A DNA stretch of 64,000 bases from assembly GCA_963723005.1 (NCBI GenBank), contig CAVRPA010000006.1, forward strand, positions 10,580 to 74,579, given 5' to 3'. Below, in pieces: positions 10,850-55,857 of this stretch. The notes beneath the pieces are model-generated. The model had not been told where the DNA came from and did not search any database. It saw nothing but the letters and a program-made list of their open reading frames with translations. A program made the position numbers and the translations under genes. Position 1 is the first letter of the stretch. The number at the start of each line of letters is the position of its first letter. The stretch is from an uncultured Acidobacteriota bacterium (GTDB lineage: Bacteria > Acidobacteriota > Vicinamibacteria > Vicinamibacterales > UBA2999).

Positions 10850-10984
10850 AGCTGTGCGCGCGCGCCGGGGACCCGACGGCGGACGCCAAGCATAGCGCCG
10901 GGCCCGAACACAGTCCAGCTTGAGCGCGACGTGTCGGTGCTCACAGCGTTCGTCCCCGCAAAGTGACAGCGATCGCCCGCCGTA

Positions 10985-15271: not shown

Positions 15272-16105
15272 CTACCCGTCTGCCGGCGCCGCAGCCTTCA
15301 CGAGCCTGGCGCCGTTCTCATCGACCGGCCGGCGGACACCTTCAACAGGCTCGTCGCACCACCGTCACCAGGACCTCCGCCACTGGCCACGGCGCTTCGT
15401 TGGCGACGGCCCAGATGGTCACGCGTCCCGTGGACGAGGTCTTGCCTTTCGTCCACGGCGTTGCCGGCGCGAACTCCGGGTAGATGAAGAGGTTCTCTTC
15501 GGCAGCGGCTTCGCCGAGCGGCGTGAACGTGAATCGCGGCACGATGTACAGCAGGCTGCGATCGAGCCGGTTCACCCGTGGATCTCGAACTGGGCGCCGC
15601 GGCGGGCGACGTCCATGCTCATCGCGACCAGGGTGTGCCACGACACGGACCCCGCGCTGTTGAGATGCCGGCGGCGCACCTCGATGCCGTAGGGATGAAG
15701 CGGAGGCTCGGGCGCCACGCCCGCCCGTCGCCGCCGCTGACGCCGCTGCACGGTGATGAGCGCCACCGGCACGCGTTCGGGCCGCTTGACGCCGGGCGTG
15801 CGTCGCAGCACGTCGAACCGCATGACCAGCGCATCGCCTTCCAGTCGAGGAAGGCCGAAGTGCAGCTGCCGATCCGTCAGCCGCGCCGGTTGCTTGAACT
15901 CGAGATCGATGCTGCTGACGCCCTGCAGTAGCGAGCGCTTGGCCAGGTAGTGCCACAGGGTCTCGATGACCACTCCGCGCTGACGCTGCCGGCGGAGTTG
16001 AGCATGCTGGAGTCGATGATCCTGTGCCGGGTGTCGAGCACGGCCGTGATGGCCTCGCCGGCCACCCGACGCCCGCCTGACTTCCGCTGCCCGCAATGGT
16101 TTCAT
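15272..16105 (-). pseudogene. decayed paralog of the 20996..21844 tandem hotdog-like gene
   Basis: Roughly 93-95% nucleotide identity to 20996-21844 by eye. Four indels relative to that copy: three 1-nt deletions and one 2-nt deletion. The product is split over three frames. Confidence 0.8.
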
Positions 16106-16211
16106 CCTGTACTCCTGTGACCAACAAAGGTACGTCATCGCGGGTCAGCCAAGCACCGGAGCGCAACCAGCCGGCTCTGCCGGTCAGGGTCGACTTATAA
16201 TCCCGCCGTCC

Positions 16212-18834
16212 ATGGCTCTGGCGCCCGGCACCCGTCTAGACAGCTACGAAATTCTGTCCCTGATCGGCGCGGGCGGGATGGGTGAGGTGTACCGCGCCCG
16301 CGACACGCGGCTGGAGCGCGACGTCGCCGTCAAGGTGCTACCGGTCGGCGTCGCCGCCGACCCCGACCGCCTGAAGCGCTTCGAGCAGGAAGCGCGCGCC
16401 ACCGCCGCTCTCAATCACCCTAACATCCTGCACGGTCTTCGACATCGGCAGCGTCGACGGCGTCGCCCTACGTCGTCTCCGAGCTGCTGGAGGGTGAGAC
16501 GCTGCGCGGCGCGCTCGAGCGGGGCGCGCTGCCGCCGCGCAAGGCCATCGAGCTGCGGCGTCGCAGCTGGCGCGACGGTCTCGCCGCCGCGCACGAGCAG
16601 CGGCATCGTGCACCGCGACCTGAAGCCCGACAACATCTTCATCACCGCGCGAAGGGCGCGCTGAAGATCCTGGACTTCGGCCTCGCGCGAAGCTGCAGCG
16701 ACGCGACGCCGCCGGCGATCGGACGATGACCACGTCGACCGTCAGCCGCGGCACGACGCCGGGCATGGTGCTCGGCACGATGGGCTACATGTCGCCGGAG
16801 CAGCTGCGCGGGGACGCCGTCGATCATCGGTCCGACATCTTCAGCGTTCGGCGCGGTGCTCTACGAAATGATCGCCGGCAAGCGCGCGTTCCACGGGCGA
16901 CACCGCGCCGATACCATCAGCGCCATCCTCAGCGGCGAGCCGCCCGAGCTGGAGGGCGCCGCCCGCAACATCCCGCCGATCCTCGACCGCCTGGTGCGGC
17001 GCTGCCTCGAGAAGTCGCCTGAGGAACGCTACCAGTCGGCGCGCGATCTCGCATTCAATCTCGAGTCGTTGTCGGCGATCTCGTCGGGCGAACCGAGCGC
17101 CGCGGGCGAGCGTGCGGCTGCGCCGTCACTCCTCCGGTGGTGATCGGGCGGTCGCGAGCGGCGTTGCTCGCGGCAGCCGCGTTGCTCGCCGGCCTGCTGG
17201 CGGGCGCTGCCTCGGCGTCGTGGACCGGCTCGGGCCGCGACCCGGCCGACCCCTCTGACGGCGTACCGCCAGCTGACGTTCCGGCGCGGGCTGATCACCA
17301 GCGCGCGCTTTTCACCAGACGGGCAGAGCGTCATCTATGAAGCGGGATGGGAGGGACGCCCCGCAACCCTGTATACGGCGCGAGTGGACAGCGTTGGCGA
17401 GCAGCCGCTGGCCACGGAGGGCGTCATCGAGGACGTCTCCAGCAGTGGCGAGATGGCCTTGCTGATCGGGGTTGAGCGGATTATCTCCTTCATGACGCAG
17501 GGGACGCTCGCCCGAATGCCACTCTCTGGCGGCGCCCCGCGCGCCATCCTTCAGCGTGTCAGCAGCGCCAGTTGGGGTCCCAACGGCCAGCAGCTCGCCG
17601 TGACGCGGATGTCACTCACCCGCCGCTGGAGCCTCGAGTTCCCGGTGGGCACGGTCCTGTATGAAACGAACGACTGGATTGAGAAGCCACGGGTATCGCC
17701 GGACGGGAGCCGTGTAGCCTTTCTCGAACACCCTGGCGGCGGCGGTGACAACCGCGGGCACGTCTCCATCGTCACGGCGACGGGTGAGAAGTCCGATGTG
17801 TCAGGTGAATACGCGGCGCTGGCGGGTCTCGCGTGGCACCCCAACGGGGAACTCTGGTTCAGCGCCAGTCGCAGCGGCGCGTTGATGCAGCTGTTCGCGG
17901 TCCGCCCCGGAGGCGAGGTGCGGCAGGTCGCGGCTCTCCCCGCATCAGTGGTGTTCCAGGACCTGCGGGCCGATGGCGCCGTGCTGCTGGAGGCTCAGGC
18001 CCGTAAGGCCCGGATGCTGGTAAAAGTTCCCGGCGAGGCGGACGAGCGTGACATCAGCTGGTTCGACTATCCGCTCCTGAGAGACATGTCGGCCGACGGC
18101 AAGTACATCCTGTTCGATGAGGAAGGGGAGGGCGGTGGCGCAAGCTACAGCGTCTTCATGCGGCCGATCGATGGCGGGCCGGCGGTGCGCCTGGGCGAAG
18201 GCTATGCCGGATCCTTCGCACCCGACATGCAACACGTGCTGACGTGGACGCCAGGCCTCGGCCGCTCCACGGTGGTGCCGATCGGGCCTGGGGAACCGCG
18301 AGTCGTGGCTGCCCTCCCGGACGGCTTCACGCCCATGGGCGCGGGGCGCTGGTGGCCGGACAGCCGGCGGGTGCTCATCCTTGGGCGCCCTCCGGAGGGG
18401 ATTCCGCGCACGTTCGTGTACGACCCGAGTTCCAATCAGACGACGCCGCTCACTCCTGAGGGTGTGTTCGGCACGCTGATCTCGCCAGACGGGACCCGGC
18501 TGGTGGTGACCGACAAGGGCGGGCGCCATCTGTTCACGATCGACAGTGGCAGGATGGCGGACATCAAGGGATTGCTGCCGGACGACCAGGTGGTGCGGTG
18601 GTCCGGTGATGGACGCGCGCTCTTCGTCTCGCGCGCGCTGTCCGCGCGTCAACGGGACCTGGCGCGCCTCGATCTCACCAGCGGACGGCGTGAGCCGATC
18701 GCAACCTTCGGGCCCGGCGGATGGCGCGGGTGTGAGCCTCGTTTCGACTCCTGTGGTGTCGGCCGACGGAAAGACATATGCGTATCATTATCAGCGTCCT
18801 CTCGGATCTCTTCTTCGCCACCGGCCTGAAATAA
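16212..18834 (+). pseudogene. Ser/Thr protein kinase - TM - TolB-like beta-propeller gene, heavily frameshifted
   Basis: Kinase motifs are scattered over all three frames ([39 protein letters not shown]). A TM segment follows, then a 1.4-kb propeller ORF. I trace at least 10 frame changes. Confidence 0.8.
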
Positions 18835-18855
18835 CGCGACGTTCTGGAGGCACTC

Positions 18856-20882
18856 ATGACGCGCTCCGTGTTGCGAACACCCGCGACCCTGTTCGCCGCT
18901 TCGCTGTGCTGGATGACCGTGGCACTGTCCGGCCAATCGGGCATCCGCGGCGGCGAGTGGACAACCTATGGCGGCGACCTTGGCAACACCAGGTACGCTC
19001 CGCTCGATCAGATCACCGCCGCCAACTTCAGCTCGCTCGAGGTCGCGTGGCGCTTCAAGGTGGACAGCCTCGGCCCCAGGCCGGAGTTCAACCTCCAATC
19101 GACGCCGCTCATGGTGAAGGGGGTGCTGTACTCAACGGGCGGCACGAGGCGAGCCGTGGTCGCGCTCGACGCCGCCACCGGCGAGCAGTTGTGGATGCAC
19201 AGCGAGCACGAGGGGCGCGCGTGGGGCGGCCGCCCCGCGGCAGTTCTCCGGACGTGGGCTCGCGTATTGGACTGACGGCACCGAAGAGCGCATCCTCTAC
19301 GTCACACCCGGGTACCGGCTCGTCGCACTCGACGCAAAGACCGGGATGCGCGTCCCTGGATTCGGGAACGCCGGCATCGTCGATCTCAAGGAGGGGCTCG
19401 ATCAGATCGTGGACCCGATGTCGGGCGAGATCGGCTTGCACGCGGCTCCAGTGGTCGCCAGGAATGTGGTCATCGTCGGCGCGGCCGGGCGTTCCGGCGG
19501 CGTGCCCACCGGGCGTACGAACGTCAAGGGATTCGTCCGCGGCTTCGACGTCCGCACCGGAAAGCGGCTCTGGATCTTCCACACGATTCCCGAGCCCGGG
19601 GAGTTCGGCAACAACACCTGGGAGAAAGACTCCTGGTCGTACACCGGCAACACCGGCGTGTGGGCGCAGATCAGCGTCGACGAGGAGCTCGGGCTCGTGT
19701 ACCTCCCGGTCGAAGTGCCCACCGGCGACTACTTCGGCGGGCCGCGCCCCGGCAGCAACCTGTTCAGCGAATCGCTCGTCGCCGTCGATCTGCAGACCGG
19801 CCAACGCCGGTGGCACTACCAGCTGGTCCATCACGGCATCTGGGACATGGACATTCCGTGCGCGCCGATTCTGGTGGACATCACCGTCGACGGGCGGCCG
19901 ATCAAGGCCGTTGCGCAGCCGACCAAGCAGGCGTTCCTCTACGTCCTCAACCGCGTCACTGGCGAGCCGGTCTGGCCGATCCTCGAGCAACCCGTGGAGA
20001 AGGGGACGGTCCCGGGCGAGTGGTACTCGCCCACCCAGCCGATTCCGACCAGGCCCCCTGCCTACGATCGCCAGGGCTTCACGATGGACGACCTCATCGA
20101 CTTCACGCCCGAGCTGCGCGCCGAGGCCGCGCAGATGGTGTCGAAGTACAAGTTGGGGCCTGTTTTCACGCCACCTGTGGTGAGCCGCATAGACGGGCCG
20201 CTGGCGACGCTCGCCATGGCAACGGCCGGAGGCGGGACCAATTGGCCCGGGGGCTCGTTCGACCCGGAGACGCAAACGTTGTACGTGTCGTCGAACCGGA
20301 ACGTCAGCCAACTCGGTCTGGTGCCCCCTCGGCCAGAGACGAAGAACGACTTGCCATATGTTCAGGGCAATGCGGCCAGCGGCGCGCGCACCACGGGCGG
20401 GTCGGGTTCAGCCGGTCCGGCGGGAGAGGGCGGCAGCGCCCCGCTCACCGTCCGCGGGCTGCCCATCGTGAAGCCACCCTACGGGCAGATCAGCGCCATC
20501 GACCTGAAGCGTGGCGAGATCGTGTGGCAGGTCGCGCACGGCGAGACGCCCGACATTATCCGGAACCACCCGGCGCTCGCGGGTGTGACCATCCCGCGCA
20601 CGGGACGGCTTGGGACGGTAGGCACGCTGGTCACCAGGACGGTCGTCATCGCGGGCGAGTCGGGCTTCGGACCCACACCTTCAGGCGCACGCGGCGCGAT
20701 GCTTCGAGCCTACGACAAGGGCACCGGAGCTGGAGGTCGGCGCCGTGTACATGCCCGCCCCGCAAACCGGGTCGCCGATGACGTACATGTTGAACGGGCG
20801 TCAGCACATCGTCGTCGCCGTGGGCGGCGCCGGCTACAGCGGTGAACTGATCGCGTTCCGATTGCCTGCCGGCGGGGCCTGA
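18856..20882 (+). pseudogene. PQQ-dependent dehydrogenase (beta-propeller quinoprotein), two frameshifts
   Basis: Signal peptide. Motif GEWTTYGGDLGNTRYAPLDQI..LEVAW. Frame breaks near 19237 and 20725. The C-terminus (MPAPQTGSPMTYMLNGRQHIVVAVGG) is readable in the third frame. Confidence 0.75.
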
Positions 20883-20995
20883 CCCTCGCGGCTGCCCCAA
20901 TCCGAAGACTGAACATACGCGTGAGGAAGAAGTGATTCACACGTCGGCACGAAGAATCGGGCGCGCGAGAGTGTCCGGGTTATACGGCCGTTGGC

Positions 20996-21844
20996 TTACG
21001 CGTCCTCAGCCACCAAAGCAGGGACCGCCTTGGCCACGGTTCCACCGTTCTCATCCACGGGCCGGCGCACGCCGTCAACCAGGCTGGTGCGCACCACCGT
21101 CACCAGGACCTCCGCCACTGGCCACGGCGCTTCGTTGGCGACGGCCCAGATGGTCACGCGTCCCGTGGACGACGTCTTGCCTTTCGTCCACGGCGTGGCC
21201 GGCGCGAACTCCGGGTAGATGAAGAGGTTCTCTTCGGCGGCGGCTTCGCCCAGCGGCGTGAACGTGAATCGCGGAACGATGTACAGAAGGCTGCGATCGA
21301 GCCGGTTGACCCGTGGGTCATCGAACTGGGCGCCGCGGCGGGCGACATCCATGCTCATCGCGACCAGGGTGTGCCACGACACGGAACCCGCGCTGTTGAG
21401 ATGCCGGCGGCGCACCTCGATACCGTAAGGATGAAGGGGCGGCTCGGGTGCCACGCCCGCCCGCCGCCGCCGCTGGCGCCGATGCACGGTGATGAGCGCC
21501 ACCGGCACGCGGTCGGGCCGCTTGACGCCGGGCGTGCGTCGCAGCACGTCGAACCGCATGACCAGCGCATCGGCTTCCAGTCGAGGGAGGCCGAAGTGCA
21601 GCTGTCGATCTGTCAGCCGCGCCGGTTGCTTGAACTCGAGATCGATGCTGGTAACGCCCTGCAGCAGCGACCGCTTGGCCAGGTAGTGCCACAGCGTCTC
21701 GATGTACCACTCCGCGCTGACGCTGCCGGCGGAGTTGAGCATGCCGGGGTCGATGATCCTGTGCCTGGTGTCGAGCACCGCCGTGATGGCCTCGCCGGCC
21801 ACACCGACCGCCCGCCTGACTTCCGCTGCCCGCAGTGGTTTCAT
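20996..21844 (-). CDS. hypothetical protein, possibly a tandem hotdog-fold (acyl thioesterase-like) protein
   Basis: Intact 282-aa ORF. Two internal repeats each carry LNSAGSVS in a hotdog-like context. The functional call is tentative. Confidence 0.6.
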   Translation of the reverse strand: MKPLRAAEVRRAVGVAGEAITAVLDTRHRIIDPGMLNSAGSVSAEWYIETLWHYLAKRSLLQGVTSIDLEFKQPARLTDRQLHFGLPRLEADALVMRFDVLRRTPGVKRPDRVPVALITVHRRQRRRRAGVAPEPPLHPYGIEVRRRHLNSAGSVSWHTLVAMSMDVARRGAQFDDPRVNRLDRSLLYIVPRFTFTPLGEAAAEENLFIYPEFAPATPWTKGKTSSTGRVTIWAVANEAPWPVAEVLVTVVRTSLVDGVRRPVDENGGTVAKAVPALVAEDA

Positions 21845-22035
21845 CTACGTCCCGAGACCGAGAACCGCCGAACCGTTGACCTGCAATTTCACGATACTCC
21901 GGGCGTTGGGCGCGGCCAAGCTTCGAGTGCAAACCGCCCCTGCGATCTCGCCGAAGCATGCGGTTTGACGCGGTCACTCGCGGCTACGGACGAGCTCTGG
22001 CGCTGATGGCCGCGAGTATGATGTTGCCGCCCGCA

Positions 22036-24100
22036 ATGGTCGGACGAACTATCTCCCACTACCGGATCGTTGCTCAGCTTGGCGCTGGCGGGATGGGAGT
22101 GGTGTATCGCGGCGAAGACACCCGGCTGGGCCGGGAGGTCGCGGTCAAGTTCGTCGTCCGAGGACGCCGCGCACGACGAGCAGGCGGTGCAGCGGCTGCG
22201 GTCCGAGGCGCGGGCCGCTTCGGCCCTGAACCACGCCAACATCTGCACCATCTACGACGTCGGCGAGGACGATGGCCACTTCTTCATCGTGATGGAGCTG
22301 ATGAAGGGCCAGACGCTGCGCGAGCGCCTGGCAGACGGGCCGCTCAAGGTCGATCAGCTCGTCGACGTCGGGATCGAGATCTCCGACGCCCTGCAGGCCA
22401 CGCACAGCGACGGCATCATCCATCGCGACATCAAGCCGGGCAACATCTTCCTGACCGAACGCGGCCACGTGAAGATCCTCGACTTCGGCCTCGCGAAGCT
22501 CACGCCGCACTTCTCGGGATCGGGCACGACGCACGAGATCGTTGACCACACCGGCGCCGGCGTGACGATCGGCACCGTCTCGTACATGTCGCCGGAGCAG
22601 GCGGCCGGCGAGCAGCTGGACGGCCGGACCGACTTGTTCTCGCTCGGCGTGGTCCTCTACGAGTGCGCGACCGGCCGGCATCCCTTCCCGGGCAAGACCT
22701 CGGCGGTGATCCTCGCCGCCATCCTCAACCGCTCGCCTGTCGCGCCGATCACCATCAATCCGGAGCTGCCGCTCCGCCTGCAGGAGATCATCAACAACTG
22801 CCTCGAGAAGGATCGCGAGCTGCGCTATCAGTCGGCGGCCGATCTGCGGGCGGATCTCAAGCGGCTGCGGCGCGACCTCGAGTCGGGACACTCGTGGCCG
22901 GTTGACTCGACGACGTCGGTCCGGCACTCGCACACCGGCGAGGCTCCCACGCCGAGCCGGGCGATGAGCACCGCGGGCAGTGGTCCTGCCACGGCCGCCG
23001 TCACGGCATCGCCAGCAAGACGCGCCGGCATGGCCATCGCCATCGTCGCCGTGCTTGCCGCTGGCGCCTACGGCGTGTGGCGCGGCATGGCGCCGGCCAC
23101 CCCTGCGACCGAGGCACCGGTCACCACCCTGTCGGATGCGGCGATCGACAGCCGCCTGTCGCTGGCACGTTCCAGCCTGAACGGACGGAACTACCGCGCG
23201 GCGATGTCGTACGCCACCTCGGTCCTCGCGGTCGATGCCGGCCACGCCGAAGCGACGCGGATTCGCGACGAAGCGCGGGAACAGCTCGCGCGCTTCGACG
23301 AAGCCGTGGGCAGGGCACGAGAGGAGTTGGCGGCCGGCGAGGTCCAGAGCGCGGCCCGCAGCCTCGAAGCGGCTCGCGCCATCGACCCCGCCTCGCCCGC
23401 TGTCGTCGAGCTGTCGTCGCGATTGTCGGAGGTCGCACGCGAGCGCGACGCCGCCGCGCGTGGCACCTCGGCGCGCCAGCTCCCCGCGCCGCCGCCCGCG
23501 CCGACGGATTCACGGCCGCAGCGGCCACCGGCCCGCGAGCCGGCCCCGGTAGCAACGGCCGCCGCTCCTGCTCCGCCCCAGGATCGACGCCCCGTTTCCT
23601 GCGACGGCGCTGCCGCCACCGCCCGCGCCGGCACCGGCGGCCACCGCCCGCACCCTCGCTGCCCGTGCCGGAGCCAACGGTCACCACCCCGCCTGCGGAA
23701 CCGCAGCCGAACCCGCCATCGCCGCCCGTCGCCGCGCGACCTCCGGAGCCAGCGGCGGCAACGCCCTCACGCGACGAAGCCGACGAGACGGCGATTCGCC
23801 GCGTCGTGGCGACGTATGGACGCGCCATCGAGACCAAGGACCTGGCGCTCTTCCGATCGGTCAAGCCGAACATGTCCGCCAACGAGGAGCGCAGGCTCCA
23901 GCAGGGGTTCCGGGCGGTGAACTCGCAGCGCGTGAACCTGACCATCGCCTCGATCGATCGCCGCGGCGAGACCGCGTCGGTCGTGGTGCAGCGGCGTGAC
24001 GTGCTCGAGGTGTCCGGCCGCACGCAGACGGCCGAAAGCCAGGCAGGTCCTGTCGCTCGCCCGGGCGGGTGACGGGTGGGTGATCGTGGAGATCCGATAG
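22036..24100 (+). pseudogene. Ser/Thr protein kinase with TM segment, TPR/coiled-coil-like region, Pro-rich linker and NTF2/SnoaL-like C-terminal domain; at least 3 frameshifts
   Basis: [13 protein letters not shown] is in one frame; [21 protein letters not shown] and SYMSPEQ are in another. Breaks near 22150, within 23570-23760, and near 24045. Confidence 0.75.
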
Positions 24101-24118
24101 TCGGCGGCATCCCCTGAG

Positions 24119-25456
24119 GTGAAGCGTATGGTCGGACGATTGATTCTCGCCGTGCTGTGCCTTGTTGCTGGCGACCCGGACCGCCGAAGCGCAGGATCCC
24201 TACAACCTGACGGCGCCGGTCCCCAACCTGGCGACGATCTTCACCGACCTCTTCGGCCCGCGCGGCCTGATCGTGGACAGCCTGGCGACGCTGCCCGGGG
24301 AGCAGGCCCACACGCGCGCACTTCGTCAGCGACTTTCAGTTCAACTTCGGCCAGTTCAGCACCGCGCTCGTCAGCCAGCTGGTGAGCGTGCCGCTGCCGT
24401 CACCGGGCGGCGGCTTCACCTACGAGTTCGATCCGTCGCTCGGTGTGTTCCAGCGCACGACGCAGAGCTTCGGCCCGATCCTGACGGATCGCGCCGAGAC
24501 GATTGGGTCCGGGCGGGTGTCGATGGGGTTCGCGCTGCAGCGGTTCACGTTCGACTCGGTGGAGGGCATCGACCTCCAGCGGCGTGCCCGCGGTCTTCAC
24601 GCACGACAACGCGCAACTGCTCGGCGGGCGTGAGGACGTGGTCACGACGAGCAACGCGATCAAGGCGGACGTCAACCAGTCCACGGTGTTCGTCACGTTT
24701 GGCGTCACCGACCACTTCGACCTGTCGGTGGCGGTGCCGATTGTCGAGACCGATCTCGAGATCGTCTCCTCCGCGCGCATCCAGCGGCTCGGCACCACCA
24801 ACGAGCTCACGCACTTCTTCCGTCAGTCGGATGGCAGCGTCGGTGTCGATCGGCTGTTCACCGCGGTCGGCAGCGCCAGCGGGCTGGGCGACCTCATGGT
24901 GAGGATGAAAGCCACGGCGTTCAGGCGCGGCAGCAGCGCGGTCGCCCTGGGCCTGGACGTGCGGCTGCCCACCGGTGACGAGATGAACCTGCTGGGCAGC
25001 GGCGCGCCGGGGCTGCAGCCGTTCGGAATCTGGTCGGCGACCTTTCAGCGTGTGTCCCCGCACGTGAACGCGGGCTATCGCTGGAACGGATCGAGCGTGC
25101 TGGCGGGGAACCCGGCGACCGGCGAGTCGGGTAACTTTCCCGATCAGGCGAGCTACGGCGTTGGCGCGGACGTCAGCCTCAACTCGCGCCTGACGGTGGC
25201 GTTCGATGTCATCGGCCGTTATCTGATCGACGCCGAGCGGCTGCGGCTCGAGGACTTCCACGGCCTCGACGGCAGTTCCACCTTCCCCAACATCGTCTTC
25301 GAGAAAGACTCCTACAACGCGCTCAGCGCCGCGATCGGCCTGAAGGGCAATGTCTTCGGGCGCCTGCTGCTGGACGTCAACCTGCTCTTCAAACTGGACG
25401 AGAACGGGCTGCGCGACAAGGTCACGCCGCTCATCGGCCTCGAGTACAGCTTCTAA
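24119..25456 (+). pseudogene. outer-membrane beta-barrel protein (phenol/MetA-pathway-like transporter type), 3 frameshifts
   Basis: Signal peptide MKRMVGRLILAVLC. Alternating beta-strand pattern. C-terminal GLEYSF. Frame breaks near 24160, 24310 and 24590. Confidence 0.65.
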
Positions 25457-25465
25457 GCGCGTGCC

Positions 25466-26365
25466 ATGACGACCCACGACAGCCATTGCCACTTCTTCTC
25501 CACCCGCTTCTTCGAAGCGCTGGGCCGCGAGAAGTTCGGCGCGACGCCAGCCGTCACGGCCGAGACCGTCGCCGAAGGGCTCGGCTGGGAGGCGCCGGGC
25601 GAGCCGCTGGCGCTGGCCGCCCGCTGGGTCGCCGAGCTCGATCGCGCGCATGTGTCGCGCGCCGCGCTCATCGCCAGCATCCCCGGCGACGAGGACTCCG
25701 TGGCCGTCGCGGTGGCGGCGCATCCGGATCGATTCGTTGGCTTCTTCGTCGTGAACCCCGTGGCCCAGGACGGCCTGGATCACGCGCAACGGGCCTTCGC
25801 GCAGCTCGGAATGCGGGCCGCCTGCCTGTTCCCGGCCCTGCATCGCTACCACCTGGACGATGAGCGCGTGCGACGGCTGTTCGATCTCGCCGGCCGTCAT
25901 CGCGCCGTCATCTTCGCGCATTGCGGGCTGCTTTCCATCGAAGCACGGGTCCGCATGGGCCTGCCCACCTCGCTCGACCTCCGGTGTGGCGATCCGCTGG
26001 CGCTGGCTTCGGTGGCGTGCGGCTATCCGAACGTGCCGGTGATCATCCCGCACTTCGGCGGCGGCTTCTTCCGCGAGGCGCTGATGGCCGCCGAGGCATG
26101 CCCGTCGATCCACTTCGACACCTCCAGCTCGAACGGCTGGATCAAGTTCGTGCCCGACCTGACGCTGGCCGACGTGTTCCGCCGCGCGCTGGTCGTGGCT
26201 GGCCCGGACCGGCTGATCTTCGGCTCCGATTCGTCGTTCTTCCCGCGCGGCTGGCGCAAGGTGATTCACGGTGCGCAGCGAGCCATCCTGGAGGAACTGG
26301 GCACCGAGCGGGAGGCGTGTCAGAAGATCTTCAGCGGTAATTTCGAGCGGCTGTTCGGCGCCTGA
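25466..26365 (+). CDS. amidohydrolase-2 (ACMSD-like) family metal-dependent hydrolase
   Basis: Intact 299-aa ORF. The N-terminal DSHCHFF metal motif is typical of TIM-barrel amidohydrolases. Confidence 0.7.
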   Translation: MTTHDSHCHFFSTRFFEALGREKFGATPAVTAETVAEGLGWEAPGEPLALAARWVAELDRAHVSRAALIASIPGDEDSVAVAVAAHPDRFVGFFVVNPVAQDGLDHAQRAFAQLGMRAACLFPALHRYHLDDERVRRLFDLAGRHRAVIFAHCGLLSIEARVRMGLPTSLDLRCGDPLALASVACGYPNVPVIIPHFGGGFFREALMAAEACPSIHFDTSSSNGWIKFVPDLTLADVFRRALVVAGPDRLIFGSDSSFFPRGWRKVIHGAQRAILEELGTEREACQKIFSGNFERLFGA

Positions 26366-26399
26366 AGCCAGTCGGGTTAAGTGCTAAGGTCATCTGGTC

Positions 26400-27497
26400 A
26401 TGTCCGTGGACCAGCCCGACCCGTCGCCCGAGCGCGAGCAAACCGACGAGAGCCTCCGGGACGAACGCGAGAAGAGTGACCGCGCGCTGGCCGAGGGCCG
26501 GAACACGGTGACCGACAGCGCCGACGAGGTGCTCCGCCGGGCGCGCGAGGAAGCGGATGCCGTGCTGCTCGAGGCGCGCGACAAGGCGGATCTCCGAGTG
26601 CAGGAGGGCGAGCCGCCGCTGGCACCGAGCGTCGCCGTGGCGCGGGAACGGGTCGCCGAAGATGCCGTGCTCCAGCAAGAGCGAGCGGCAGCGGACACCG
26701 CCCTGGAGTTCGAGCGCGCGCAGGCCGCTCGCGTGCTGGCCCAGCTGCTGCCTTCGAACGTGAGCAGACCGATCAGTTTCTTCTCATCGAGCGCGTGCGG
26801 TCGGACGATGCGCTCGCCAGTCGCGACGACTTTCTCGGCCTGGTCAGCCACGACCTGCGGGACTTGCTGGCTGCCATCGTGATGAGCGCGGCGGTCGTCG
26901 AGAAGACCGCGGCCGGCGGCGCCGAGGGTGCTCGCATCCTCACCGAGACCACGCGCATCCAACGCAACGCGGCGCGGATGAACCGGCTGATTGGGGATTT
27001 GCTGGATGTGGCGAGCATCGATGCCGGCCGCCTGGCAATCCGACCCGCAGCGAGGCGACCTTGGGACCGTGCTCGCCGAGGCGGTTGACGCCTTCACGGC
27101 GGCGGCCACGGCCAAGGGCGTCAGACTGACGCTGGTGACCGCTGATGAACCGCTGCTGGCGGATTTCGACCATGCTCGCCTTTTTCAGGTGCTGGGAAAC
27201 CTGATCATGAACTCCATCAAGTTTTGCGCCACGGGCGGCAGCATCTCCGTGCAGGTGGAGCGCGACGGTGAATCGTGGCGCTGCTCGGTGACCGACACCG
27301 GGATTGGCATCCCGGCCGATCAGCTCGAGATCGTCTTCGAGCGGTACTCGCAGGTCGGCAGAACCCGATCGGGCCTGGGACTCGGGCTGTATATCTCGAA
27401 GTGCATCGTCGAAGCGCACGGAGGGCGGATCTGGGCCGAGAGCACCCTCGGTGCGGGCAGCTGCGTGAGCTTCAGCCTGCCTCGGGCAGTAGCCTGA
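26400..27497 (+). pseudogene. cytoplasmic sensor histidine kinase, 2 frameshifts
   Basis: H-box FLGLVSHDLRDLL. N, G1 and G2 boxes (LGNLIMNSIKF, DTGIGI, GLGLGLYI). Three frames are used, with breaks near 26752 and 27040. Confidence 0.75.
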
Positions 27498-27503
27498 GGG
27501 CGC

Positions 27504-29243
27504 GTGAATCAACACTACAATGCGCGCGTGAAGCCCGTGACCCTTCTTCGCAGCGCCGCTCTCACCGTTGCCGTTGCCCTCACCGCGGCCGCAGCGGCCG
27601 GCGCGAGGCAGCCCGCACCCGCCTACGATCTCCTGATCCGTAACGGCCGCGTCTTCGACGGCAGCGGCAATCCGTGGTTCCCGGCCGACGTCGCGGTGAA
27701 GGACGGGCGCATCGTCTCCGTGGGACGGCTGGGCGATGCCACGGCGAAGACGACCATCGACGCCACCGGCAAGTACGTGACACCTGGCTTCATCGACATT
27801 CACTCTCACGCCGACGATGGCTCGAGCCCGGACGGCGGGTTGCGGGATCCGAATCGCGCCCGCCGGGCGGCGCCCAACCTGGTGTCGCAAGGCATCACCA
27901 CCGTGGTCGTGAACCAGGACGGCCGGTCGCCGTGGCCGATCAGCGAGCAGCGCACGCTGCTGGAGAAGCAGGGGATCGGCGTGAACGCGATGATGCTGGT
28001 AGGACACGGCACCATCCGCCGGCAGGTGATGAAGGACGACGTAAAGCGCCCATCTACAGCGCAGGAGCAGGCGGCGATGCGCGTCCTGTTGCGCCAGGGC
28101 CTGCAGGAAGGCGCGGTTGGTCTTTCGGCCGGCCTCGAGTACGAGCCTGGCCGCTGGAGCACGACCGACGAAGTGGTGGAGCTCGCGCGCGAGTTGCCGC
28201 CGGTCCAGGGCATCTACATCTCGCACGAGCGCAGCGAAGGCAGCGATCCGCTGTGGTACGTGCCGAGCCAGGATGGTCCGGGCCCGCCCACGCTGCTCGA
28301 CGCCGTGCGCGAGACCATCGAGATTGGCGAGAAGACCGGCGCCCGCGTGGTGGCCTCGCACCTGAAGGCCAAGGGCGAGCACTACTGGGGATCGAGCGCC
28401 GCGGCGGTGGGCCTCATTCAACGCGCCCGCGATCGCGGCGTGGACGTGTGGTCGGATCAGTATCCCTACCCCACCAGCGGCACCGACGGATCCACCGTGC
28501 TGATTCCGGCGTGGGCCATCCGCGCGCCCGGCGCCTCCGGCGCGCCAGCCTCGAGCAGCCGCGCGCAGATGCTGAAACGCGTGCTGGGCGACGCCTCCAC
28601 CGCGAAGCAGGTCCGCGCCGACATCGGGCACGAGATTCGCCGCCGCGGCGGCGCCGGCAACATCGTCGTCTACGACTATTCGGACAAGAGCGTCTACGGC
28701 AAGACGCTGAAGGAGATCGCGGCGACATGGAAGGTGGAGCCCGTCGAGGCCGCGATCCGCATCCAGATGGAAGGCCTGGATCGCAATGGCGGCGCCCGCA
28801 TGCGCGGCTTCTCGATGGCGGAGTGGGACATGGAGCACATCGCGAAGCAGCCGTGGGTGGCGACGTCCACCGACGGTGGCATCGCGCTCCCGGAGGATGG
28901 GCCGACGACCCACGCGCGCTTCTATGGCAGCTTCGTCCGTAAGATCAGCCACTACGCGATCGAGCGCGGCGCCATCTCAATCGAGTCGGCGATTCGCGCG
29001 AACACCTCGTTGCCGGCCCGGATCATGGGCCTGACCGATCGCGGCGCGATCCGCGAAGGCATGGCCGCAGACCTCGTGGTGTTCGACATCAACACCATCC
29101 GCGACAAGGCGACGTTCTTCGAGCCGCACCAGCATTCCGAGGGCATCGAGCACGTGTTCGTGAACGGCGTTGCCCGCGTGACCGACGGGAAGATCATCGA
29201 CGCGCTGCCGGGACGAGTGTTGACGAGGACCGCGCGCCCGTAG
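27504..29243 (+). CDS. D-aminoacylase-type (N-acyl-D-amino-acid deacylase family) amidohydrolase, secreted
   Basis: Intact 579-aa ORF. Signal peptide. Motifs YDLLIRNGRVFDGSGNP and GFIDIHSHAD. Confidence 0.8.
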   Translation: MNQHYNARVKPVTLLRSAALTVAVALTAAAAAGARQPAPAYDLLIRNGRVFDGSGNPWFPADVAVKDGRIVSVGRLGDATAKTTIDATGKYVTPGFIDIHSHADDGSSPDGGLRDPNRARRAAPNLVSQGITTVVVNQDGRSPWPISEQRTLLEKQGIGVNAMMLVGHGTIRRQVMKDDVKRPSTAQEQAAMRVLLRQGLQEGAVGLSAGLEYEPGRWSTTDEVVELARELPPVQGIYISHERSEGSDPLWYVPSQDGPGPPTLLDAVRETIEIGEKTGARVVASHLKAKGEHYWGSSAAAVGLIQRARDRGVDVWSDQYPYPTSGTDGSTVLIPAWAIRAPGASGAPASSSRAQMLKRVLGDASTAKQVRADIGHEIRRRGGAGNIVVYDYSDKSVYGKTLKEIAATWKVEPVEAAIRIQMEGLDRNGGARMRGFSMAEWDMEHIAKQPWVATSTDGGIALPEDGPTTHARFYGSFVRKISHYAIERGAISIESAIRANTSLPARIMGLTDRGAIREGMAADLVVFDINTIRDKATFFEPHQHSEGIEHVFVNGVARVTDGKIIDALPGRVLTRTARP

Positions 29244-29306
29244 CACCTGCTGTTCAATCGCGCAGGACCTGCAGCCGTGGGCGCGGCGTTCTGAATCGGG
29301 CCGCGG

Positions 29307-30341
29307 CTACTGGAACAGCGACTTGCGCAACATCGCGTGGACGCCCTTGGTGACGTCCACCGTCTGGCTGACGCGCAGGTCTACGGCCGCCGAGCACAGC
29401 ACGTAGGCATCGTCGCGCGACAGGCCTTTCTCGGCGACCAGGTACTCGATCATCTCGCGGGTGGCGATCCGGGCGGCTTCGTCCAGATCCGGATCCAGCC
29501 CCACCGTGATCACGTGCGTCGCGGTCTCGATGCGCGCGTAGCGCATCGGCTTCTTCTTGTGCAGCACAATCTCGAGCGTCGTCGCCAGCGACGTTTCGAT
29601 CGCGGTGCCCGACACCTCGCCGTCACCCTGGGCGGCGTGGCCGTCGCCAATCGACAGCAAAGCGCCGGTCACGTGTACCGGCAGGTATATCGTGCTGCCG
29701 GCGCCCAGTTCCTTGATATCGAGATTGCCGACGTGCGGTCCTGGCGGGCCGCTCGAGACCCGGCCGGAGAGGGCGGGCGGTGCCACGCCGATGGATCCGA
29801 AGAAGGGCGCCAGCGGCACGGTCACGCCCGGCGCGAAGCGAGCGGTCTTTCCCGACGGGTCGAAGCGCACCAGCTTGAGGTACGCGTAAGGGAACTCGGC
29901 CGGCAGCGTGCCGCCACCGGGCAGGAACCCGATCACGCCGTAGGGGTGCAGGAAGTCGATGGCGCCAATCCGCACCTCGAGGGAATCTCCGGGCTCGGCG
30001 CCAGTCACGAAGATCGGTCCCGTCAGGGGATGTGCGCCAGGCCCCCGCGACGTGATCGCGGCTTCCACTGCCTTGAGCGAGCCGGGAATCTCGCCGTCCG
30101 GCACGCCGGCCAGCCGCAGTCGTTCCACCCCGCGAGCGGCCATGGTCTCCACCCGGACTCGCGCGCCGGAGACGATAGTCAGCACCGGCTTGACGCTGGC
30201 GTCGTAATAACCCCAGTGCACGTTCGACGGGAGCAGTTTCAACTCGTGCATCTGCTGCGCCTGCACGCCCAGGCCGGCCGCGGCCGCGCACAGACCAAGA
30301 CCGCCGAGCGCGACGGACGCAAGACGAGAGGAGCGGCGCAT
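29307..30341 (-). CDS. acetamidase/formamidase-family amidase, secreted
   Basis: Start set at the ATG at 30341 (MRRSSRLASVALGGLGL signal). Motifs GNLDIKELGAGSTIYLPV and SIGDGHAAQGDGEV. Confidence 0.8.
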   Translation of the reverse strand: MRRSSRLASVALGGLGLCAAAAGLGVQAQQMHELKLLPSNVHWGYYDASVKPVLTIVSGARVRVETMAARGVERLRLAGVPDGEIPGSLKAVEAAITSRGPGAHPLTGPIFVTGAEPGDSLEVRIGAIDFLHPYGVIGFLPGGGTLPAEFPYAYLKLVRFDPSGKTARFAPGVTVPLAPFFGSIGVAPPALSGRVSSGPPGPHVGNLDIKELGAGSTIYLPVHVTGALLSIGDGHAAQGDGEVSGTAIETSLATTLEIVLHKKKPMRYARIETATHVITVGLDPDLDEAARIATREMIEYLVAEKGLSRDDAYVLCSAAVDLRVSQTVDVTKGVHAMLRKSLFQ

Positions 30342-30453
30342 ATTGGCGGAGTATACGGGAATCCCGGGCACCGACGACCGCGCGGGTCTGGTCGCGGCGA
30401 GCGTGCGGTGGCGATCTGTCAGACGTGCAAGGGATCGGATAGAGTGCTCCCCC

Positions 30454-32726
30454 ATGCGCGTGCCTGCCACCCTGTTCGTCGCCGCCTGCTGTGCGCTCGC
30501 CGCGTGCGCACGCCCTGCCGAACCGGCCGCGCCACCGTCGTTCGAGCAACTGGCCAGGACGTCGCTGGCACGCATCGAGGGACGCCTCGCGGTTCCCGGA
30601 CTGAAGGCCGAGGTCGAAGTCCTGCGTGACGAGTGGGGCGTGCCGCACATCTACGCACAGGACACGGACGACCTGTTCTTCGCCCAGGGGTTCGTCGTCG
30701 CCCAGGATCGGCTGTGGCAGATGGAAATCTGGCGGCGCACCGGCGAAGGCCGGGTCGCCGAGCTGGTCGGGCCGGCCGGCATCCCGCACGATCGGCTCAT
30801 CAGGCTGTTCAAGTACCGAGGACCCTACGACGATGCGGAGTGGAGCAGCTACCATCCCGAGGGCAAGCGCATCTTCACCGCCTACGCCGCCGGCGTCAAC
30901 GCGCTGATCGCGTCGGTTGGGGACCACCTCCCTGTCGAGTTCACGCTGACGGGCACGCGGCCGGAGCCGTGGACGCCAGAGCAGTTGCTGCAGCGTGCAC
31001 GCGTCAGCGACTCGCTCGGCGATGCCCGCGCGGAACTGACGCTGGCGAAGAGCGTGGCCATGCTTGGCCTGCAGGAGGCGGATCGGCGCGCTCGCACGGT
31101 GCCGGCCGACAACCTGGCGATACCGGACGGAGTCGAACGTCTCGCTCGTCACCGACGCGGTCATCCAGGCGCTCGATGGCGACATGTACGGAACGCTGCC
31201 GTCGCCCGAGATTCTGCCGCAGTATCGCGACCTGTCGGGCGCCGTGGCTTCGATGGACCTGGGCGTACCGGAAGATCTCGCCGGGCAGCAACAACTGGGC
31301 GATCAGCCGCACGCTGACCGGAACCGGCACCGCCATCATGGTGGACGATCCTCATCGTCAGGTCACCAACCCGGCGCACCGCTACCTGCTGCACCTGAAC
31401 GCCCCGGGCTGGAGCGTGGCGGGCGCCACCGAGGCTCCCCTCGCAGGCGTCATCCGTGGCCACAACGGCCGCGTCGCCTGGGGTCGCACCGCCACCGAAA
31501 CGGATCAGGCCGACGTGTACGTCGAGACGGTCAATCCCGCCAATCCGAACGAGGTGATGTTCAACGGAACGTGGGAGCCGCTCCGTGTGGTCACCGAGGA
31601 GATTTCCGTCAAAGGTGGGCCGTCGCAGAAGGTGACGCTGAAGTTCAGCCGCCACGGGCCGATCTTCCACGAGGATCGCGAGCACCACCTCTCCTACGCC
31701 CTCCGGTCGCAACTGCACGAACGGGGCACGGCAGAGTACCTCGGCGGCCTGCGACTGGACCAGGCCACCTCGGCCCGCGATTGCCTGGATGCGGCGAATT
31801 ACATGCCGATGCCTCCGACCAATCTGGTCTGTGCCGACGCCGATGGCAACATCGCCTTCCGCATCGCCGTCTTCGCTCCGACGCGGAACGGATGGACCGG
31901 GCGACTACCCGTCCCGGGCACCGGGAGGTACGAGTGGGGACCGAAGCGGACGGACCTGCCCTCCGAGTACAACCCCGAGCGCGGCTACATCGCCACGGCC
32001 AATAACAACACGCATCCCCCGCAGTTCGCGCCGCCGTACGCCTACTACCCCGCCGACCGCCGCTATCGACGGCACGAACGCATCGTCCAGATGATTACGA
32101 GCGCGAAGTCGTTCACGATTGACGACATGACGCGCATGCTGCGCGATTCGCTCAACTCGGAAGCCGTTGAAGACCAGCCGCGCTTCCGCGGCTGGAGCAG
32201 TGAAGATCCTGCCGTGGAGCGGGCGCGGGCGATGGTGGACGGCTGGGATGGGGTGATGGATCGCGCCAGCGGCGCCGCGGCCATCTACATGTCGTGGCAG
32301 CGGGTGGCGGATCTCCAGGCCGCCCGAAAGGGCTCGCGTGACGCCGTCGTCACTGGGCTACGGCGCGCGATCGAGGAGATGACGAAGACGCAGGGTGAGA
32401 ACTGGGCCGAGTGGCGATGGGGCCGGATGAACCGTAGCGAGTACCCGCATGCGGTGTTGAGTGCCTTTGACCTGCCGCCCATCGAGCGGCAGGGCGGCGC
32501 GGGCACCGTCAACGCGATCGGATCGGTCTACCGGCTCGTGACCAATTTCAAGGAGCCCGACCAGTCGCTGGTGACCATCGGCCCTGGGAATTCAGGTCAG
32601 CCCGGCAGCCCGTTCTACGACAACCTGCACGCTCTGTGGGGGCGGAACGAATTCTTTCCGCTGCTCTTCACCCGGCCCGCGGTGGAAGCACAGACACGCC
32701 ACCGGCTGACGCTGACGCCGCGTTAG
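30454..32726 (+). pseudogene. penicillin/cephalosporin-acylase family Ntn-hydrolase lipoprotein, 2 frameshifts
   Basis: Lipobox LFVAACCALAAC. Alpha-subunit motif RDEWGVPHIYA. Beta-subunit nucleophile GSNNWAIS. Breaks near 31130 and 31280. Confidence 0.8.
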
Positions 32727-32761
32727 GCCTCCAGCGGCTGACGCCGCCCCGTGCGGAATCG

Positions 32762-53614: not shown

Positions 53615-53758
53615 GCTGAACCTCCCCCGCGCCCGAAGGCGCCCTGCAGCCCATGCCGTGACTTTGGGTGACCGGCGTGAGCGGGCGGACTATAACAGAG
53701 TTGGCCACCGGCCCATCTCGTCGGCGTGCTATCTTCGCGTTCCGCCAGGGGGCATCGC

Positions 53759-55823
53759 ATGAAGCCAGAGATCGCACTCTCGCGCGGCGCGACCATCGCC
53801 GCGACCGGATTGCTCATCGTCCTGCTGGGGCTGCCGCTGGCTCCGCACGCCACCGATGCCCAGCGGCAGGACGCGCCCGCCGGGGAGTGGCGCTACATCG
53901 GCGGCGACGTCGCCCACACGCGGTACTCGCCCCTCGATCAGATCGACGCCACGAACTTCTCGAAACTCGAGGTGGCCTGGACCTGGCGGGGCGACAACTT
54001 CGGCCCTGCCGTGGACGTCCTCTTCCGGTCAACGCCGCTCTACGTGGACGGCCTGCTCTACACCGTCGCCGGCGAGCGGCGTGCGGTCGTGGCCATCGAT
54101 CCCGGCACCGGAGAGACCATCTGGACCTACCGCGAGCCACACACGACGCGCTTCGCGCGCGGCATGCGCAACAACTACGGCAAGGGCGTCGCCTTCGCCG
54201 AGGTCGGCGGGCGGAAGGTGATCTTCTACACCTCGCCGGCGTTCTTCCTGCATGCGCTCGACGCGAAGTCGGGGCAGCACCTGGACGACTGGGGCACGAC
54301 GGTGGCGCTGCCGGGCTTCCCGCGCTCAGGAGTCGTCGACATGCTGCCAGAACTGGTCAAGGACTGGGAGCCCTGGCTCACGTCCGGCTACAAGTACGAT
54401 CCCGATCACGGCATCCCTCGGGATCTCGGCAACCTGTCCACCTCGTCGCCACCCATCGTCGTCAACGGCGTGATCGTGGTCGGCAACGTGCACGAGCAGG
54501 GCTACTACCAGACGCGCATCGAGAACATCCCGGGCGACATCCTCGCCTTCGACGCGAAGACCGGCCAGCCGATGTGGAAGTTCCACGTCATCCCGAGGCC
54601 TGGCGAGTTCGGACACGACACCTGGAAGACCGACGCGTGGAAGCGCACCGGCGACGTGTCGTCGTGGGCGCCGATGTCGGCGGATCCCGAGCGCGGACTC
54701 GTCTACATCCCGACCAACCCGCCGACCATCGACTTCTTCGGCGGCTTCCGCCCTGGCGACAACCTGTTCGGGACCAGCCTGCTCGCGCTCGACGTGAAGA
54801 CCGGCAGGCGCGCGTGGCACTTCCAGATGGTGCATCACGACATCTGGAACTTCGACAATCCCAACGCCCCGGTCCTGATGGACGTCACCATCGACGGGCG
54901 ACGCACGCCGATCGTCGTCGAGACGACGAAGCAGGGCTTCGCGTACACCTTCAATCGTGAAACCGGCGCGCCGATCTGGCCGATCGAGGAGCGCCCGGTC
55001 GCCGCCTCGGATCTGCCGGGTGAACTCCTGTCGCCGACGCAGCCGTTCCCGACCAGGCCCCGGCCGCTGGAGATCCAGGAACTCACCGAGGACGCGCTCA
55101 TCGACTTCACGCCCGACCTGCGGAAGCAGGCGCTGGAGATCGTGAAGAGCTACAAGATCGGGCCGCTCTTCAATCCACCGATCCAGGTGGGCCATCCCTC
55201 CGGGCTTCGCTCGTTCGTCAGCTGTCCCGCGGGCGCCAGCAACATCAACGGTCCTACCGTCGCGGATCCCGAGGCGGGCGTCCTGTTCGTGACCACGCAG
55301 CGGTTGTGCCGGTCGGAGAACATGGTGCCGGGCGAGAAGATGGACGAGCCCGAGGATCCCAAGACCACGGGCCGCACGCGTCGCCCGCTGGGTGGTCGCG
55401 AACCGCGGCGATCTGCGAGGGCCAGAGGGCCTGCCGATCTGGAGGCCGCCGTACAGCCGCATCATCGCCATCGACATGAGCACCGGAAATTTTCTCTGGG
55501 AGATTCCCAACGGCGACACGCCGGAGCACATCCGGAACCACCCGGCCCTGCGCGGGCTGAACGTGCCCCCCACGGGGCAGATGGGACACGCCGTGATGAT
55601 GCCGACGAAGACGCTGTTGGTCACTGCGCCTGGCGGCGATCCCGTGCTGTACGCCGTGGACAAGAAGACCGGTCAGCGCGTCGGTACCGTCAAGCTGCCT
55701 GCACCAGGTCAATACGGCATGATGGGCTACCTGCACCAGGGCAGGCAGCACATCGTCGTCCAGGTCGGGAGCCCGACGCATCCCGGATCGCTCGTGGCGC
55801 TGCGGTTGCGCGACCGGTCGTAG
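53759..55823 (+). pseudogene. PQQ-dependent dehydrogenase paralog, one frameshift
   Basis: Signal peptide. Motif [26 protein letters not shown]. Break near 55375. The C-terminal 143 aa are in another frame. Confidence 0.8.
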
Positions 55824-55857
55824 GTCTCGACGCGGACTTCGTGCCGCCTCGGACCGC

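Follow-up and report, generated by a model that had tools for sequence, protein, structure and literature searches.

The block at 15272-27497 of the window, which is the whole 64,000-nt stretch of DNA analysed here, is very probably a patch of consensus errors that were left uncorrected in a long-read soil metagenome contig, beneath which the genes are intact and under purifying selection. The indels are largely private to single assemblies, intact alleles of the broken genes occur elsewhere, and the spectrum of indels is unlike that of natural mutation. The first-pass annotation had left two explanations for the block, a decaying, dispensable region or a stretch of poor consensus quality; the latter is strongly supported by the private indels, the intact alleles, the signature of purifying selection and the unnatural spectrum. 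The window lies on a Vicinamibacterales-like acidobacterial contig of 166,370 nt. Six assemblies of the locus were compared in this work, namely the window and its siblings L001, L081, L083, L084 and L085, which are 91-99% identical at the nucleotide level.

Extent and density of the frame breaks

We counted about 31 small coding indels in 15272-27497, together with three intergenic ones (16167, 16189 and 22008). This corresponds to a density of about 2.8 per kb, compared with about 0.14 per kb in the remaining window. Six of the eight genes in the block are frame-broken, and the other two, copy B of a paralog pair and an amidohydrolase gene, are intact. The 12-kb frame-broken run described in the first-pass annotation was therefore borne out, with breaks at the coordinates given there and far denser than in the flanks. 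Its tally of seven broken genes out of nine was right about the breakage but not about the numbers, and its own list names six. The minimum of about 24 frame changes that it gave for 11.8 kb is in agreement with the 31 coding events found here, as are its minima for copy A (five here, at least four there), for STK1 (15 here, at least ten there) and for STK2 (four here, three there). For the PQQ dehydrogenase (two), the outer-membrane protein (three) and the histidine kinase (two), the earlier counts and ours are identical.

The flanks had been described as unbroken. They are indeed much cleaner than the block, but they do contain some breaks. One window-private out-of-frame indel, at 10926, was found in 5.9-15.3 kb. 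Outside the block on the other side, the penicillin acylase ORF (30400-32723, plus strand) has two breaks, at 31134 and 31275, both due to indels private to the window, and the gene is unbroken in the sibling L084, where it encodes a 756-aa Penicil_amidase protein. Further breaks lie at about 52760, 55350, 56900, 60715 and 62150. Frameshifts suspected at 35.04, 38.3 and 46.8 kb were rejected, as these sites are ordinary gene boundaries.

The broken genes and their intact counterparts

Copy A (15272-16105, minus strand) encodes a hypothetical protein of about 280 aa and is broken by five small deletions at 15346, 15355, 15584, 15969 and 16068 (the last of 2 nt), as determined by alignment to copy B and to the sibling L081. 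Its counterpart in L081 is an intact 265-aa ORF. Copy B (20999-21844, minus strand), which is about 94% identical to copy A at the nucleotide level, encodes an intact hypothetical protein of 282 aa. The copy B protein is present exactly in a public collection, and its cluster has JGI members with lengths of 275-287 aa. The paralog pair had been labelled "hotdog-like"; this label found no support from Pfam, in which no family matched at E≤0.01.

STK1 (16212-18829, plus strand) encodes a Ser/Thr protein kinase followed by a TM segment and a TolB-like beta-propeller, and carries 15 indels. Eleven of these are insertion events, adding 14 nt in total, that fall within about 420 nt of the kinase domain (16430-16846, plus strand), which is the densest error patch; the others are at 17126, 17250, 18716 and 18796. 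None of the insertions in the patch is in a homopolymer, and the majority are a G added after a C. The intact form of STK1 is represented by the 869-aa protein P0123 of L081, which shares a 90%-identity cluster with the 481-aa fragment from the window and matches Pfam Pkinase over positions 1-253 of 263. The JGI contig L086 shows out-of-frame indels relative to the window only at 18710/16, 18796 and 18842. A search of metagenome contigs with the propeller piece found no relative.

The PQQ-dependent dehydrogenase gene (18856-20879, plus strand) contains window-private 1-nt insertions at 19216 and 20730, with frame changes at both positions in tblastn comparisons with about 40 reference loci. 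In the majority consensus of the six-way alignment the gene is a single 681-aa ORF, and the repaired protein matches Pfam PQQ over positions 1-595 of 595 (E=2.9e-186). Private indels also occur in this gene in L001 and L083 (four each) and in L081 and L085 (two each); L084 has none and encodes an unbroken protein of 674 aa. The JGI contig L082 carries a PQQ dehydrogenase that is at least 90% identical, but it was of little use as a comparator, being non-syntenic and only 84% identical at the nucleotide level.

STK2 (about 22018-24100, plus strand) comprises a kinase, a TM segment, a helical region, a Pro-rich linker and a SnoaL-like C-terminal domain, and is interrupted at four sites, 22156, 23581, about 23640 and 24042, by +1 events; uninterrupted, it is predicted to span about 690 aa. 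The JGI protein P0193 is a single ORF that spans 99% of the 330 C-terminal residues of STK2, and the JGI contig L087 lacks precisely the STK2 indels of the window. The next gene (about 24119-25453, plus strand) encodes a putative outer-membrane beta-barrel protein and has insertions at 24167, 24314 and 24583. Its majority consensus is a 436-aa ORF with a GC3 of 0.94, for which no Pfam match was found. Once the G at 24167 is taken out, the signal peptide is regained, as in L084 and the JGI contig L087.

The gene for an Amidohydro_2 metal-dependent hydrolase of 299 aa (25466-26365, plus strand) is intact in the window and split in four sibling long-read contigs. All six JGI members of its cluster are 299 aa long, compared with 106-184 aa for the members from sibling long contigs. 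The histidine kinase gene (26400-27497, plus strand; HisKA H-box and HATPase_c) is broken by a deletion at about 26750 and an insertion at about 27041, both located from a three-frame reading and from deviation from the consensus. Its last piece matches Pfam HATPase_c over positions 2-109 of 111.

Private and shared indels in the sibling assemblies

Each of the five siblings has its own, differing set of 1-nt indels, often in genes that the window has intact. Six-way and five-way alignments revealed 183 private out-of-frame indels across all assemblies, at differing sites. In 22.0-27.9 kb, there are three such indels in the window (in addition to about five shared ones), 17 in L001, 14 in L083, 30 in L084 and 21 in L085. 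L081 has 15 in 11.0-13.8 kb, where every other assembly has none, and L085 has 18 in 27.9-36.3 kb, where L084 has none and the window has three. The genes for an ABC permease, the amidohydrolase and a Mo-oxidoreductase subunit, all intact in the window, are split in L081, L083, L084 or L085. The JGI contigs L086 (92% identical) and L087 (89% identical), which we assumed to be short-read assemblies, differ out of frame from the window only at its frameshift sites. In the 90% protein clusters, JGI members are full length and those contributed by the long "contig_N" assemblies are fragmentary.

The locus is accessory and variable among the sibling assemblies. Neither L001 nor L084 has copy A or STK1, STK1 is also missing in L083 and L085, and only L083, L084 and L085 have an M20 peptidase gene. 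The structural-variant breakpoints lie at 15296, 16159-16400, 18630-18790 and 20950-21980. One 6-kb stretch shows noise in each of the five assemblies spanning it, which calls for a locus-specific cause.

A minority of the out-of-frame indels, 18 events in 22.0-27.9 kb, are shared. The 1-nt insertions common to several assemblies are at 22999, 23581, 24042 and 24167. Those at 24042 and 24167 are present in the window, L001, L083 and L085, and that at 23581 is present in the window, L084 and L085. The sharing sets {window, L084, L085}, {window, L001, L083, L085} and {L083, L084, L085} cannot fit one tree, and L084 is the closest relative of the window yet lacks two of the shared insertions. The uninterrupted state is found in L084, in the JGI contig L087 and in the 114,658-nt sibling that encodes P0194. 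Because the insertions at 22999, 24042 and 24167 recur in three or four assemblies, the majority-rule consensus is wrong at these sites and was corrected by protein plausibility and the JGI contigs.

Indel spectrum and selection

The indel spectrum was based on 188 polarised indels, of which 87% are 1 nt long and 97% are not a multiple of 3; insertions outnumber deletions by 143:45. The homopolymer check suggested in the first-pass annotation gave a negative result: 24 of the 127 1-nt insertions (19%) extend a run of the same base, compared with 50% expected by chance, and five of the 127 fall in runs of at least three bases, so that the errors do not belong to the classic homopolymer type. 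A CpG is created by 50% of the 1-nt insertions, compared with 23% expected, and after strand normalisation the inserted G is preceded by C in 64 of 93 cases. No motif beyond this preceding C was found in the 7 nt on either side of the insertions, and a methylation-motif explanation was rejected on this basis.

After repair, both genes compared with L081 have no in-frame stops and dN/dS values that are not near 1 (0.29 for STK1 and 0.15 for copy A), although dN/dS is a pairwise average and is blind to very recent inactivation.

Discussion

For the window contig, Nanopore sequencing with Flye assembly and Medaka polishing is the most likely origin, as judged from the sibling "contig_N" ENA assemblies; Nanopore sequencing is documented for L001. 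The latter is MFD00392.bin.2.132, a MAG of the Microflora Danica long-read catalogue. That catalogue was built by assembling Nanopore reads with Flye --meta --nano-hq, followed by a single Medaka round, and its authors discuss Nanopore-associated errors (PMC12313526). Basecalling or polishing may have added or dropped single bases, typically inserting a G after a C, and would have left errors near raw-read density in some stretches and hardly any in neighbouring ones. We suspect that the clustering arises from low strain-specific read depth, or from mixed-strain or paralog read pile-ups, at a locus whose structure varies between co-occurring strains.

Several properties of the block resemble the consensus errors of Nanopore-only MAGs, in which single-base indels split ORFs and differ between assemblies of the same population. 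As in such MAGs, the errors are missing from the contigs assumed to be short-read, and the relative L001 belongs to a catalogue of this kind (PMC12313526); an R10.4 evaluation of Nanopore assemblies offers a further comparison for indel errors (PMC9262707). However, the indels here are non-homopolymeric and insertion-biased with a C-to-CG signature, they form sharp blocks of 3-10 per kb beside error-free stretches of several kb, and more than one sample shows noise at this same locus. The structural variants between co-occurring strains and the 94%-identical paralog pair are also reminiscent of strain-collapse and paralog mis-mapping artefacts, where a single-haplotype polisher performs poorly on mixed read pile-ups, as may have happened at this locus. 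Some observations speak against an artefact. The textbook Nanopore error mode is homopolymer-linked, and the indels here are not; the shared insertions at 22999, 23581, 24042 and 24167 could be real polymorphisms; and the 6-kb stretch with noise in five assemblies calls for a locus-specific cause.

Genuine decay of the region, in which the strain would have inactivated six neighbouring accessory genes by frameshift as in dispensable islands or genome reduction, is very unlikely. An accessory locus with several frameshifts in adjacent genes does recall the pseudogene-rich regions of Mycobacterium leprae or of recently host-restricted symbionts, and the roughly 20-fold concentration of breaks relative to the remaining window, the differing presence of copy A, STK1 and the M20 peptidase among the siblings and the few indels common to several assemblies would be consistent with it. 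However, each sibling assembly has different and equally dense private 1-nt indels, also in genes that are intact here, and the JGI contigs lack exactly the indels of the window. Nonsense codons and larger deletions are absent, and the bias is towards insertions; Mira, Ochman and Moran are said to have described in 2001 a deletion bias in bacterial pseudogenes. The dN/dS of 0.15-0.29 is low, and 11 insertions in 420 nt together with modest substitution divergence are quantitatively implausible for decay. Most lesions are private and the shared ones are mutually incompatible in their distribution, so that inheritance of the breaks among close relatives along a tree is not seen, and intact alleles are 91-99% identical. 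The decaying, dispensable region considered in the first-pass annotation is thus unsupported. Programmed frameshifting, or phase variation through slippage-prone tracts, would account for many +1/-1 events and nothing more, and it is effectively refuted by the context analysis: few insertions adjoin an identical base or lie in runs, they share no motif past the preceding C, and the sites differ in each assembly. Fifteen events in one gene are also incompatible with recoding, and we regard this explanation as vanishingly improbable.

A combination, in which most indels are artefacts and the recurrent ones at 24042, 24167 and 23581 are real frameshift polymorphisms in the STK2 and outer-membrane-protein genes, appears unlikely. 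It would explain why an identical insertion occurs at an identical site in assemblies from different ENA analyses, and both states do exist, since L084, the P0194 source and the JGI contig L087 are uninterrupted. The sharing patterns, however, fit no single tree and are at odds with the position of L084, and the downstream peptide QVLSLARAGDGWVIVEIR, although out of frame, retains perfect conservation in the window. Because the bases inserted at the shared sites match the general error signature, a recurrent context-specific error is the simpler explanation. We likewise consider it doubtful that the locus is a strain-level recombination hot spot in soil Vicinamibacterales, at which a cassette of the 280-aa protein and a Ser/Thr kinase is duplicated, moved or lost and the insertions at 23581, 24042 and 24167 are true segregating loss-of-function alleles of STK2 and the outer-membrane protein.

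Because the breaks are almost certainly consensus errors, the genes are to be annotated as intact once the sequence has been polished, and the six broken genes of the block warrant neither a pseudogene label nor annotation as separate fragments. Before polishing, neither this contig nor the sibling MAGs can be relied on for gene calls, domain architectures or pseudogene counts. In these high-GC long-read soil MAGs, the errors form sharp, insertion-biased blocks, typically with a G added behind a C. Because they are non-homopolymeric and different samples sometimes share an error site, some of them will escape homopolymer-aware filters and majority voting among MAGs. Elsewhere in the window, at least seven other genes bear the same type of error.

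Frame breaks in the block and its flanks

The GC content of the window is 68%, at which stop-free stretches are frequent in all frames, and coding frames were therefore set by three approaches: third-position GC, a Viterbi path through the GC3 periodicity, and homology. Within 15272-27497, the coding signal shifts frame repeatedly inside evident single genes. Copy A (15272-16105, minus strand), one of two paralogous genes for a protein of about 280 aa, carries five frame-disrupting indels (15346, 15355, 15584, 15969 and 16068). The Ser/Thr kinase-propeller gene STK1 (16212-18829) carries 15, comprising 11 insertions in 16430-16846 and indels at 17126, 17250, 18716 and 18796. Two are located in the PQQ dehydrogenase gene (18856-20879; 19216 and 20730), four in the second Ser/Thr kinase gene, STK2 (about 22018-24100; 22156, 23581, about 23640 and 24042), three in an outer-membrane protein gene (about 24119-25453; 24167, 24314 and 24583), and two in a histidine kinase gene (26400-27497; about 26750 and about 27041). 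Copy B (20999-21844, minus strand) and an amidohydrolase gene (25466-26365) are unbroken. These 31 coding indel events, together with three intergenic ones, confirm the frame-broken block described in the first-pass annotation and slightly exceed its minimum of about 24 frame changes. Its per-gene minima equal our counts for the PQQ dehydrogenase (2), outer-membrane protein (3) and histidine kinase (2), but rise from at least 4 to 5 for copy A, from at least 10 to 15 for STK1 and from 3 to 4 for STK2; the seven broken genes out of nine became six out of eight upon recounting.

The flanks, in which the first-pass annotation saw no break at 0-15.2 and 32.7-52.7 kb, are about 20-fold cleaner than the block, but further frame breaks were found outside it. 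The penicillin acylase gene has frameshifts at 31134 and 31275, and single frameshifts occur in a 1004-aa hybrid histidine kinase (about 52760, at the HPt end), a second PQQ dehydrogenase (53696-55963; about 55350), an FtsX/MacB-type permease (about 56900, splitting the gene into ORFs of 534 and 362 aa), an amino-acid permease (about 60715) and a kynureninase (about 62150).

Comparison with sibling assemblies

A search of species-representative genomes using a piece of the PQQ dehydrogenase revealed matches in Acidobacteriota, chiefly Vicinamibacterales and Bryobacterales. The top match, contig_12912 of MAG MFD00392.bin.2.132 (L001), is syntenic with the window at 91-97% nucleotide identity. 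The predicted protein fragments of the window are present in a public protein collection (166,370-nt NCBI/ENA contig), and clusters at 90% identity around these fragments yielded four further assemblies, L081, L083, L084 and L085 (ENA analyses ERZ25039494, ERZ25039531, ERZ25039536 and ERZ25039547), which have Flye-style 'contig_N' names and 94-99% nucleotide identity with the window. The Microflora Danica long-read MAGs were obtained from Nanopore reads with Guppy super-accurate basecalling, assembled with Flye (--meta, --nano-hq) followed by one Medaka round, and checked by their authors for Nanopore-associated errors (PMC12313526). The window's own contig probably also comes from a long-read platform.

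Up to six assemblies were aligned, and each indel was assigned to the deviating assembly. In every aligned assembly, private out-of-frame indels were found grouped in patches. At 11.0-13.8 kb, L081 has 15 and the window, L001 and L083 have none (L084 and L085 not covered); at 13.9-15.3 kb, L081 has one, L083 two and the other four none. In the PQQ gene (18.8-20.9 kb), L001 and L083 have four each, the window, L081 and L085 two each, and L084 none. The 22.0-27.9 kb region is noisy in all five covering assemblies, with three private indels in the window (plus about five shared), 17 in L001, 14 in L083, 30 in L084 and 21 in L085 (L081 not covered). At 27.9-36.3 kb, the window has three, L084 none and L085 18 (L001 not aligned; L081 and L083 not covered). 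L084 shows this best: 30 private indels within 5.9 kb adjoin 8.4 kb with none. Because every assembly has its own patches, dense blocks beside clean sequence are a recurrent trait of the assemblies, not of the organism's biology.

STK1 and copy A, broken in the window, are intact in L081 (869 and 265 aa), as are the PQQ dehydrogenase and penicillin acylase in L084 (674 and 756 aa). Conversely, three proteins that are whole in the window (an ABC permease, the amidohydrolase and a Mo-oxidoreductase subunit) are fragmented in at least one of L081, L083, L084 and L085. The majority consensus gave ORFs of 681 aa for the PQQ dehydrogenase and 436 aa for the outer-membrane protein, and the repaired PQQ protein matched its Pfam model over the full length (1-595 of 595, E=2.9e-186). 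A 65%-identical STK-propeller homolog, P0076 (ENA, 80,969-nt contig), runs out of frame for about 100 residues and then regains the frame; the public protein collection therefore contains similar errors from other, unrelated long contigs.

Probable consensus error versus genomic decay

The first-pass annotation proposed either genomic decay or poor consensus quality. The private indels of each assembly, the intact sibling alleles and the indel spectrum argue against decay, and the block is very probably uncorrected long-read consensus error. Repaired STK1 and copy A contain no in-frame stops, and their dN/dS values against L081 are 0.29 and 0.15; the value for an intact membrane protein next to them is 0.03. 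Among 188 polarised indels pooled from all assemblies, 87% are 1-nt events, 97% are not a multiple of three, and insertions outnumber deletions by 143 to 45. Lengthening of a same-base run, expected by chance for 50% of the 1-nt insertions, is seen for just 19%; the homopolymer context suggested for checking is avoided by 1-nt insertions at all aligned loci. A CpG is created in 50% (23% expected), and 64 of 93 inserted Gs stand, after strand normalisation, directly after a C, with no wider motif visible around them beyond this preceding C. The signature is seen, for example, in window 16430-16846 and in the L084 equivalent of window 22309-27578. Natural small bacterial indels are deletion-biased and arise mainly by slippage in runs, and the observed spectrum is the opposite. 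Evolutionary decay cannot reasonably explain 11 non-templated insertions in 420 nt of an otherwise well-conserved kinase domain. The spectrum also differs from the classic Nanopore mode of homopolymer deletion, as insertions prevail about 3:1, homopolymers are avoided and G is inserted after C.

Identical 1-nt insertions at 22999, 23581, 24042 and 24167 are shared by three or four of the assemblies, across separate ENA analyses. Their distributions are incompatible with a single tree. We read them as errors that recur in a specific sequence context, with a small probability that some are real segregating alleles. Those at 24042 and 24167 are absent from L084 and from the JGI contig L087. Because the insertions recur, the majority consensus is wrong at these sites, which were mended with JGI data. 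The JGI contigs L086 and L087, assumed to be short-read assemblies, cover parts of the block. L086 (92% identity, 17491-19027) shows out-of-frame indel differences only at 18710/16, 18796 and 18842. L087 (89% identity, 22452-24313) differs solely at 23580, 23642, 24039/42 and 24167, besides one in-frame 6-nt change, and these differences coincide precisely with the window's frameshift sites. In the amidohydrolase cluster, all six JGI copies have 299 aa, whereas the copies from long 'contig_N' assemblies have 106-184 aa. The block is no feature of the biology and serves instead as a caution in the annotation of this contig and of comparable MAGs.

Structural variation at the locus

The locus is structurally polymorphic among sibling populations of 91-99% identity. 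L001 and L084 lack copy A together with STK1 (15296-18783), and L083 and L085 lack STK1 alone. An M20/M28 peptidase gene of about 1.4 kb, absent from the window, separates the PQQ gene from STK2 (window 20949-21980) in L083, L084 and L085, and L001 is without the segment that holds an acetamidase and the penicillin acylase (29226-32732). This polymorphism, together with the paralog pair formed by copies A and B, may underlie the clustering of errors: strain-specific segments would receive reads from that strain alone, reads of other strains or of the paralog may be misplaced close to breakpoints, and a single-haplotype polisher would then work badly on such pile-ups. The window is worst affected in copy A and over the initial 650 nt of STK1, two patches that both sit exactly at structural breakpoints.

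Copies A and B have about 94% nucleotide identity, and each forms a divergent pair with a Ser/Thr kinase gene. Their protein matched no Pfam family, 'hotdog-like' being the first-pass label only. The single copy in L001 is nearer to copy A (95.5%) than to copy B (93.8%). Divergence from L001 rises from 2-8% to 12-20% across the histidine kinase and D-aminoacylase genes (window 26400-29200), and this mosaic suggests recombination between lineages.
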